In this document: one piece after another, positions 35,476 through 38,497 of the stretch
Layout: each line of letters opens with the position of its first letter
How positions within the stretch are numbered: the stretch's first letter is position 1
Origin: Escherichia coli
Lineage (GTDB): Bacteria > Pseudomonadota > Gammaproteobacteria > Enterobacterales > Enterobacteriaceae
Reading direction: 5' to 3' (one strand)
Length of the DNA: 64,000 bases
Assembly: GCF_030013205.1 (NCBI RefSeq)
Contig: NZ_CP122648.1
Notes under the pieces: model-generated
Told to the model about the DNA's origin: nothing
Seen by the model: the letters and a program-made list of their open reading frames with translations, nothing else
Database searches by the model: none
Made by a program: the position numbers and the translations under genes

Positions 35476-35697
35476 TCAGGCTACAGCTTTAAGATTTGTC
35501 TGGAATACTTTGTTGCAATGAGGGCAGATCAAAAGGGCACCTTTTTGTACTCTTGAAAAACTGTGTTCTGACTCTTGGGTGCAGTTTGGGCAGGAACATT
35601 TAACGAGATAATTACGGCGTGATTTTGAGTTTTTACGTTCTGACATAGGCTTTTCCTGTATAAATGGCCGTATACAGTACACTAAATATGAAAACAT
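35476..35697 (-). CDS. small zinc-ribbon protein (CxxC-x18-CxxC)
   Basis: 73-aa ORF; likely start at internal Met (MSERKNSKSRRNYLVKCSCPNCTQESEHSFSRVQKGALLICPHCNKVF). Confidence 0.4.
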   Translation of the reverse strand: MFSYLVYCIRPFIQEKPMSERKNSKSRRNYLVKCSCPNCTQESEHSFSRVQKGALLICPHCNKVFQTNLKAVA

Positions 35698-37421: not shown

Positions 37422-37782
37422 GGTAATATTAAATCGGAACATTTACATCGCGGAATGTAAAATTTAAATAAAAAGGACTCTTCCATGAGCCAAAATTCCT
37501 GAAATCTTAAGGGTAAGATAAAAGGTCTTAATCAGAATGACACGTTTTATTAATAAATAAAGCTATTCTTTCATTGCTGTGTTTTTCTTTACAAAAGTAA
37601 TCCTTGCTATGGGTGGTTAATCATGCGTTAATGGTGTTCTGGTTTGTTACAAATTTATCTGAAGCAGTCATTGTTATAATTTTATTATTTGTACCTCTTG
37701 AGATTTCCTTGTTGGTTTTTCTCTCTGATATTTTTTTCGGACCATTCTGCCCAAGGGCTAATTTCTTCAAAAGGTAATAATT

Positions 37783-37995
37783 ATGTCTAACAAAATGACT
37801 GGTTTAGTGAAATGGTTTAACCCTGAAAAAGGTTTTGGTTTCATCACGCCGAAAGATGGCAGCAAAGATGTGTTTGTCCATTTCTCAGCAATTCAGAGCA
37901 ACGATTTCAAAACATTAACTGAGAATCAGGAAGTTGAATTTGGTATTGAGAACGGACCTAAAGGTCCTGCCGCTGTTCATGTAGTGGCGCTTTGA
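37783..37995 (+). CDS. cspI: cold-shock protein CspI
   Basis: 70-aa [54 protein letters not shown]... Confidence 0.9.
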
Positions 37996-38197
37996 GGTAG
38001 ACAATATTACAAACCATATTCACTTTAGATGCCCGTGTTGTCATGGTTCCCAGTATAGAACATCATCTTTTGATGTTTCTGACATGAATCCTTTCGGGGC
38101 AAAATGTATCTTTTGTAAATCAATGATGATTACATTTGATAATATTTCACAATACTTAAATGCCAGCCGTCTGTCGTTGGATTTGAAAAAGTGAAAA

Positions 38198-38222
38198 TGA
38201 AGGCTCCTTCGGGAGCTTTTTT
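38198..38222 (+). terminator. rho-independent terminator (UUCG tetraloop)
   Basis: gctcc-ttcg-ggagc followed by tttttt. Confidence 0.5.
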
Positions 38223-38266
38223 GCTTGGTGTCTATTCGATGGATACTCACATACTACGGTAACATC

Positions 38267-38497
38267 ATGAAAAAAATCATAGTTTTTTTTAACTCTGAAC
38301 CAGCAGTGGTAGTGCCAGCGATGACTGGAGTTAACACCATCATGCGTGAATATCCAAATGGCGAAAAAACACACCTTACTGTAATGGCCGCAGGGTTTCC
38401 ATCTCTGACCGGAGATCATAAAGTCATTTATGTAGCCGCGGATCGACATGTTACTTCAGAAGAAATTCTGGAAGCAGCAATAAGGCTCTTGAGTTGA
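38267..38497 (+). CDS. hypothetical prophage protein (76 aa)
   Basis: ATG at 38267 (MKKIIVFFNSEPAVVVPAMTGVNTIMREYPNGEK...) inside ORF 38225..38497. Confidence 0.5.
   Translation: MKKIIVFFNSEPAVVVPAMTGVNTIMREYPNGEKTHLTVMAAGFPSLTGDHKVIYVAADRHVTSEEILEAAIRLLS

Follow-up and report, generated by a model that had tools for sequence, protein, structure and literature searches.

The open frame that directly follows cspI in the analysed DNA is ynfQ, an already annotated gene for a conserved 62-residue protein, and comparison of related sequences places the start of its translation at the ATT codon 38006-38008 (+ strand). The joint account, in which ynfQ is a Qin prophage paralogue of the core gene ymcF, forms the second cistron after cspI, starts with AUU and, as we infer, is coupled to csp translation, is very probably correct. 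The window, a 64,000-nucleotide stretch of Escherichia coli DNA (contig NZ_CP122648.1), contains a TAG at 37982-37984, after which the frame stays open for 69 codons (37985-38191) up to a TGA at 38192-38194. The upstream cistron, cspI (37783-37995, + strand), encodes a 70-aa cold-shock protein (WP_000066495.1), and its TGA stop (37993-37995) falls inside the 69-codon frame, but in another reading frame. The open frame, its overlap with the cspI stop and the absence of any in-frame ATG, GTG or TTG before the ATG at 38084, all given in the original prediction, are confirmed by the sequence and by the list of open reading frames, and the CxxC...CxxC pattern reported for the frame is present as C9/C12 and C34/C37 (numbered from ATT 38006). 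The frame looks start-less because ynfQ begins at a rare start codon, ATT. Its first seven codons (37985-38005, + strand) comprise the 3' end of cspI and the 10-nt intercistronic spacer and lie outside YnfQ: the first position of the Pfam profile corresponds to codon 8, codon periodicity is absent upstream of the ATT, and homologues have in-frame stops in this stretch. A conserved protein gene can thus appear start-less to an ORF finder, as ynfQ shows.

In E. coli genomes that are 100% identical in the region, the RefSeq coding sequence corresponds to window positions 38006-38194 (+ strand, 62 aa plus the TGA) and is labelled 'cold shock small protein YmcF' or ynfQ (WP_071524604.1), an assignment also supported by Pfam and the alignment of homologues; downstream of it, these chromosomes carry ynfR, ynfN and gnsB. 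The counterpart in K-12 MG1655 is ynfQ (b4724, 1638256-1638444, minus strand), located in the cryptic prophage Qin. It encodes an identical protein of the same length, at the same position relative to cspI and with an identical start-region sequence, and the coding region compared differs from that of the window by a single synonymous change (TTG for TTA). The frame stands above chance, as seen from its match to the YmcF-like family PF23641 (E 9.9e-32; 109.4 bits against a gathering score of 27; profile positions 1-61 of 62 on frame residues 8-68) and from coding-type conservation within the family. All invariant and near-invariant columns of a 24-sequence alignment are found in the window protein, i.e., the core HFRCPCCHGSQYRTS...NPFGAKCIFCKS and the four knuckle cysteines. 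The original prediction would have been refuted by an N-terminal half devoid of homologues; this half (HFRCPCCHGSQYRTS) is instead better conserved in the family than any other part.

The position of the start codon is indicated by several independent features of the sequence. RefSeq places the start at ATT 38006 in the E. coli genomes inspected, K-12 among them, and the N-terminus of the family coincides exactly with the ATT codon, since PF23641 positions 1-61 align to frame residues 8-68. A protein search identified 132 relatives across Enterobacteriaceae, and a genome scan yielded 80 loci from distinct species, the codons of which were aligned using the CPxCxGSQ motif as an anchor. The codon aligned with 38006 is ATT in 48, ATC in 3 and ATG in 34 cases (counts for the 80 species loci that also include a few E. 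coli loci), while three other loci have an ATG one to three codons from the aligned position. Many loci contain an in-frame stop 12-24 nt upstream and no ATG, GTG or TTG before the conserved cysteines. In Kosakonia, this stop lies just 12 nt upstream and the three codons in between are not near-cognate, leaving the ATT as the only near-cognate codon. The ATT is also retained between ynfQ and ymcF (~73% DNA identity), while the flanking bases differ and the second in-frame ATT of ynfQ (codon 5) corresponds to CTC in ymcF. The sole conserved upstream feature in 84 loci is the GG at -11/-9, which belongs to the Shine-Dalgarno sequence (GAGGT, 37994-37998, + strand, in the window). The latter holds the last two bases of the cspI TGA and lies 7 nt before the ATT, which itself starts ten bases after the cspI stop. 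The comparison thus finds a Shine-Dalgarno sequence at a fixed distance and no canonical alternative start that would preserve the conserved protein. Finally, entropy by codon position amounts to 0.39/0.24/1.22 from the ATT onward, and such periodicity is absent upstream. Considering the conserved ATT/ATC/ATG codon, the upstream stops and the coding periodicity that begins at the ATT, the gene is therefore taken to be coding, under selection and started at 38006. Of the two explanations originally offered for the missing start, non-canonical initiation is the one borne out by the RefSeq annotation, the start of the Pfam profile and the aligned codons of the homologues.

The surroundings of ynfQ suggest how such a start might be used. 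The region 37638-38022 (+ strand) matches the Rfam cspA thermoregulator over the full model (RF01766, positions 1-428 of 428; 114 bits against a gathering score of 78, E 1e-29), covering the long 5'UTR, the csp coding sequence and a short 3' part, and the 5' end of the match (37638) is likely to be the transcript start of cspI-ynfQ. A terminator-like hairpin (GGCUCC-UUCG-GGAGCU followed by a U tract; 38199-38223, + strand; -15.1 kcal/mol, z -2.6) is found 5 nt after the ynfQ stop and likely forms the 3' end of this transcript; the same stem was also flagged in a second scan, where it is listed on the - strand. Because of the thermoregulator match and the terminator, cspI and ynfQ appear to share one cold-shock transcript of two genes. 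In transcriptome studies, changes in ynfQ and ymcF accompany those in cspI and cspG (PMC11228462; PMC11728337).

Among relatives, the identity of the start codon depends on the presence of a csp gene immediately upstream. The csp context was classified for the 80 species loci: 34 have an intact csp gene in front, 45 do not, and one, carrying ATT/ATC, lies at a contig edge and is unclassifiable. Where an intact csp of ~70 aa ends 12-13 nt upstream, with its stop inside TAAGG or TGAGG, the start codon is ATT or ATC in all 34 loci and ATG in none. Without such a csp gene, an ATG is found at or next to the codon in 37 of 45 loci, and ATT or ATC in the remaining 8. Fisher's exact test of csp adjacency against start codon gives 5e-15, a value that ignores the kinship of the loci, which might represent only ~4-6 independent transitions. 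The location of the csp stop within the Shine-Dalgarno sequence, 12-13 nt before the start, is conserved in the 34 loci. The csp-less group includes Klebsiella and Raoultella, in which a decayed 3' remnant of csp is followed by an ATG, as well as Enterobacter, Leclercia and Lelliottia, in which the solitary gene has its own AGGAG. It also includes a locus of Citrobacter sedlakii NBRC 105722 (L009, ~1290-1690) with a degenerate csp that has a 19-nt deletion at its 3' end and is followed by an ATG. The degenerate csp reads KEFN instead of KWFN and VFVPS instead of VFVHF; as the deletion removes its stop, it continues in frame into the ymcF-like gene. In L090, another C. sedlakii locus, an ATT follows csp in the usual way.

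Four loci (L018, L034, L038 and L055) keep the ATT without an intact csp ORF in front, so that coupling to a full csp cannot be strictly required. Three of them (L018, L034 and L038, ~1470-1510; Pseudescherichia vulneris and relatives) combine the ATT with an AAGGA Shine-Dalgarno sequence in the absence of an upstream csp ORF, and two of these three have a tiny overlapping ORF (MKKG[YH]YYY*) that starts 19 nt before the ATT. When 20 loci (14 of ATG type, 6 of ATT or other type) were scanned for the cspA thermoregulator, only L009, with its degenerate csp, and the ATT-type L055 gave a match, in the latter ~750 nt upstream.

Two further properties of the start region were considered. The ratio of ATT to ATC at codon 1 (31:3) matches that of the ordinary isoleucine codons of the gene (76:21:3); there is thus no separate sign of selection for AUU itself, and the preference for ATT over ATC was dropped as an indication of AUU-specific selection. 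An RNA structure that would hide the Shine-Dalgarno sequence or the ATT until cspI is translated was likewise rejected as support for coupling: RNAalifold found essentially no consensus structure in 18 csp-coupled loci (-1.2 kcal/mol), hence no conserved masking structure, and the single-sequence fold at the start region is not unusual (z -1.4).

The occurrence of ATT or ATC in 34 of 34 csp-adjacent loci and of ATG in 37 of 45 csp-less ones suggests that the weak start may be used by ribosomes finishing csp. In the favoured account, a single cold-shock transcript would extend from the cspA-type leader (~37638) through cspI and ynfQ to the terminator (~38223), and the AUU at 38006 would be served by the GAGGU Shine-Dalgarno sequence that contains the cspI stop codon. 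Ribosomes that have just completed cspI, ten bases upstream, would be the main users of the weak AUU, through translational coupling or re-initiation. Synthesis of YnfQ would accordingly be tied to translation of cspI, and so confined to the cold, and would stay at a low and constant ratio to that of CspI; lineages that lost the upstream csp would have replaced the AUU by AUG. Coupling fits the reporter work on re-initiation, in which about half of the translation of a second cistron is due to re-initiation if the gap between stop and start is short, and an AUU start is several-fold less efficient than an AUG (PMC3592434). It also fits the discrimination of IF3 against AUU, a poor start codon (PMC5499595). 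A more far-reaching proposal, that the AUU is a selected device tying YnfQ/YmcF synthesis to csp termination, possibly aided by cold-weakened IF3 fidelity, with a fixed low YnfQ:Csp ratio and with AUG as a compensatory change upon csp loss, is tentative and has somewhat less than an even chance of being right. If true, it would constitute a natural, repeatedly evolved case of re-initiation tolerating a start codon that free initiation does not. The pattern of AUU right behind csp and AUG when alone makes it easy to ask by genetic means whether start-codon choice is relaxed in re-initiating ribosomes in vivo.

Alternatively, free 30S subunits might use the AUU independently of cspI translation, the weak codon being retained, as at infC, to sense temperature or the fidelity of IF3 rather than for coupling. 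This could account for the three loci that keep the ATT without any csp (L018, L034 and L038) and would agree with the presence at ynfQ of a good Shine-Dalgarno sequence of its own at a 7-nt spacing; besides, at short gaps de novo initiation is about as frequent as re-initiation (PMC3592434). The bearing of temperature is twofold: IF3 discrimination against AUU is argued to be weaker in the cold, an effect that would benefit an AUU gene induced under this condition, but AUU mRNA competed worse at low temperature in vitro, according to the same source (PMC5499595). As the division between ATT/ATC in csp-adjacent loci and ATG in csp-less ones is left unexplained, initiation by free 30S subunits is considered unlikely to be the explanation.

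The remaining alternatives concern the coding status of the frame. In the family alignment, pN ranges from 0.07 to 0.13 against a pS of 0.64-1.0, with synonymous sites saturated, and by this measure the ynfQ frame is under strong purifying selection. The other originally proposed explanation, a small zinc-finger gene that has decayed into a pseudogene and lost its start codon, draws on the lack of a canonical start before 38084 and on the location in a cryptic prophage. However, some 2,130 E. coli genomes carry an intact copy of this ATT-started frame, the paralogue ymcF has the same ATT arrangement in the genomes inspected, and this arrangement recurs in Citrobacter, Salmonella, Kosakonia, Yokenella and others. 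True decay looks otherwise: in L050, the gene follows a broken csp, and its product has 57 aa and a W in place of an R. With the frame intact, widespread and with pN far under pS, conservation and selection exclude decay for practical purposes, and it is regarded as highly improbable.

A third possibility is a CspI-YnfQ fusion made by a +1 frameshift. The cspI gene ends with CTT TGA G (37990-37996), the same slippery-stop motif as at the prfB frameshift site, and the +1 frame is open into ynfQ, so that CUU UGA G could be read as UUU GAG GUA..., i.e., in the ynfQ frame. The motif is not conserved, however: in the 34 csp-adjacent loci the last csp codon is CTC in 12, CGC in 10, CTT in 8, GTA in 3 and CAC in 1, and the csp stop is TAA in 28, most relatives ending with CTC TAA, CGC TAA or GTA TAA. 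No single frameshift rule fits the loci, because the csp stop is located at -13 in 27 of them, and the other 7 have it at -12, where it shares the frame of the small gene. Moreover, the sequence upstream of the CUU (GUAGUGGCG / GTAGTGGCG) has no stimulator resembling a Shine-Dalgarno sequence at a distance of ~3 nt, and several species have an in-frame stop between the end of csp and the ATT. A prfB-like frameshift was thus rejected as the family mechanism on the grounds of non-conservation and has only a very slight probability of explaining ynfQ; trace frameshifting in this particular cspI allele is conceivable.

The least probable reading, with next to no chance of being correct, is translation of only the 36-aa ORF (MNPFGAKCIF...) from the ATG at 38084-38086 (+ strand), the sole canonical ORF of the frame in the ORF list: this ATG, which encodes the internal Met27 and is not a start codon, is replaced by AGG or AGA in 94-95% identical E. 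coli ynfQ alleles and by CGA in ymcF, its residue is variable across the family (24 homologues) and it has no preceding Shine-Dalgarno sequence, so that the lack of conservation of the ATG, together with the location of the most conserved part of the protein upstream of it, excludes this reading.

The nearest known counterpart of ynfQ is its paralogue ymcF (K-12 b4723, PF23641), which encodes 62 aa, starts with ATT and shares 65% protein and ~73% DNA identity with ynfQ. Just as ynfQ follows cspI, ymcF follows a csp gene (cspG) after a 10-nt gap, and the two lie in parallel cassettes, cspG-ymcF-ymcE-gnsA and cspI-ynfQ-(ynfR)-ynfN-gnsB. The pairs differ at the end of the csp gene (CTC TAA in cspG, CTT TGA in cspI) and in distribution: ymcF is a chromosomal gene with a match in 5,413 of the 5,426 complete E. 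coli genomes, whereas ynfQ is borne by prophages and phages and found in ~2,130 genomes. Temperate phages with ynfQ include Tritos and 2H10; in Escherichia phage Tritos, the cassette contains endolysin, Rz, cspI, ynfQ, ynfN, gnsB and a DUF1398 gene. Six further Escherichia phage records also contain ynfQ.

Among known genes, infC (encoding IF3) resembles ynfQ in having an AUU, a codon that IF3 disfavours, a few bases after an upstream stop (thrS UAA GGU AUU) and in being cold-induced (PMC3592434, PMC5499595). In contrast to ynfQ, the gap at infC is 3 nt instead of 10 nt, and the AUU serves autoregulation by the product of the gene itself, a loop that is neither known nor likely for ynfQ. At pcnB, the AUU keeps expression low (Binns and Masters 2002, as cited in PMC3592434); however, that article does not describe pcnB as coupled to an upstream cistron, and its protein is unrelated to YnfQ. 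A 2017 paper gives infC and pcnB as the only AUU-started genes of E. coli (PMC5499595), to which ynfQ and ymcF would add two.

The YnfQ protein contains two cysteine knuckles. The first, C9-P-C11-C12 (CPCC; 38030-38041, + strand), is followed by H13; in the 24 homologues, C9, P10 and C12 are invariant, and conservation of C11 and H13 is 90% or higher. The second knuckle, C34-I-F-C37 (38105-38116, + strand), has an invariant C37 and a C34 that is conserved to 90% or more in the same set. In an AlphaFold2 model built from the 24-sequence alignment (mean pLDDT 72), the knuckles are carried by two beta-hairpins, with strands 6-8/17-19 and 32-34/42-44 flanking them, and the C-terminal helix is of low confidence. 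The model thus predicts that residues ~5-45 form a zinc-ribbon core, followed by a helix at the C-terminus, and the original description of the product as zinc-ribbon-like is plausible in view of the motifs and this medium-confidence model. The arrangement of two CxxC knuckles on two beta-hairpins resembles Cys4 zinc ribbons (the N-terminal domain of MqsA, the TFIIE-alpha ribbon, eL43 and Rpb12), but no match to them is significant: Foldseek against the PDB gave no match under E 0.6, the best being zinc ribbons at a non-significant E of 0.6-5, and a PDB sequence profile search (E of at least 0.05) gave only weak matches to Rieske or UvrA motifs and no PDB relative. A search of PHROGs with YnfQ returned no match, and the only match in NCBIfam, to the CxxC family ECs_2282, remained below the cut-off (17.8 bits, with 37 required). 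The segment CPCCHGSQY (38030-38056, residues 9-17) resembles the Rieske box II of cytochrome b6f (CPCHGSQY).

YnfQ also differs from a plain Cys4 site in the conservation of Cys11, His13 and His6, which such a site does not need. Because these residues are conserved beyond the four knuckle cysteines, the metal site may be other than plain Zn-Cys4. In a 2026 review, YnfQ was modelled with Fe2+ as rubredoxin-like (PMC13348028), and ynfQ is listed among the uncharacterised y-genes (PMC11551758). As a best guess, to be given little weight, YnfQ could be a metal-stabilised partner of the cold-shock response that binds nucleic acids or ribosomes. Another small Qin prophage protein with two CxxC-type knuckles, YnfU (35476-35646, - strand), is likewise encoded near cold-shock genes, between cspB and the lysis genes. 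Unlike ynfQ, its gene has a canonical ATG, lies on the opposite strand and is not downstream of a csp gene; YnfU was rejected as a homologue of YnfQ in view of the lack of detectable sequence similarity.

As public annotation already includes the gene with its name, Pfam family and ATT start, the identification of ynfQ as such is not new, and the link between csp adjacency and start codon appears to be a modest new observation. A search of one literature library found no paper on the ATT start of ynfQ or on its function, and the gene is absent from the main text of Nakahigashi 2016 and of the Weaver 2019 preprint. The name requires some caution: the 'ynfQ' of VanOrsdel 2018 (PMC6001520, Table 1) is a different, 37-aa ORF located between ydfJ and ydfK (1632890-1633003). 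It is not the gene described here, because the ORF differs and a 2024 y-ome paper lists ynfT there, in a Qin gene cluster whose range starts at 1632890 (PMC11551758). A 69-aa antisense ORF overlaps ynfQ (38041-38250, - strand) and has an equivalent at L089 (1545-1745). In the record of phage HannyBb, the antisense ORF is called and ynfQ is missed, an annotation artefact due to the ATT start of ynfQ. In older entries for Citrobacter, the protein is given an N-terminal extension that reaches back into csp.

Downstream of ynfQ, the annotated gene for the 21-aa small protein YnfR (38197-38262, + strand) overlaps the terminator; it begins 3 nt after the ynfQ stop. Since ynfR is encoded across the hairpin, its translation would require terminator read-through; YnfR-SPA is strongly induced by cold shock (VanOrsdel 2018, PMC6001520). 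In 94-95% identical alleles, the ynfR ORF is labelled 'too short' or pseudo by PGAP. The following gene, ynfN (38267-38497, + strand), encodes 76 aa in the window and in many E. coli genomes, and 51 aa (156 nt) in K-12 and in phage Tritos; PHROGs contains families for both the 76-aa and the 51-aa forms, pointing either to a start that is called differently or to a truncation of the gene.
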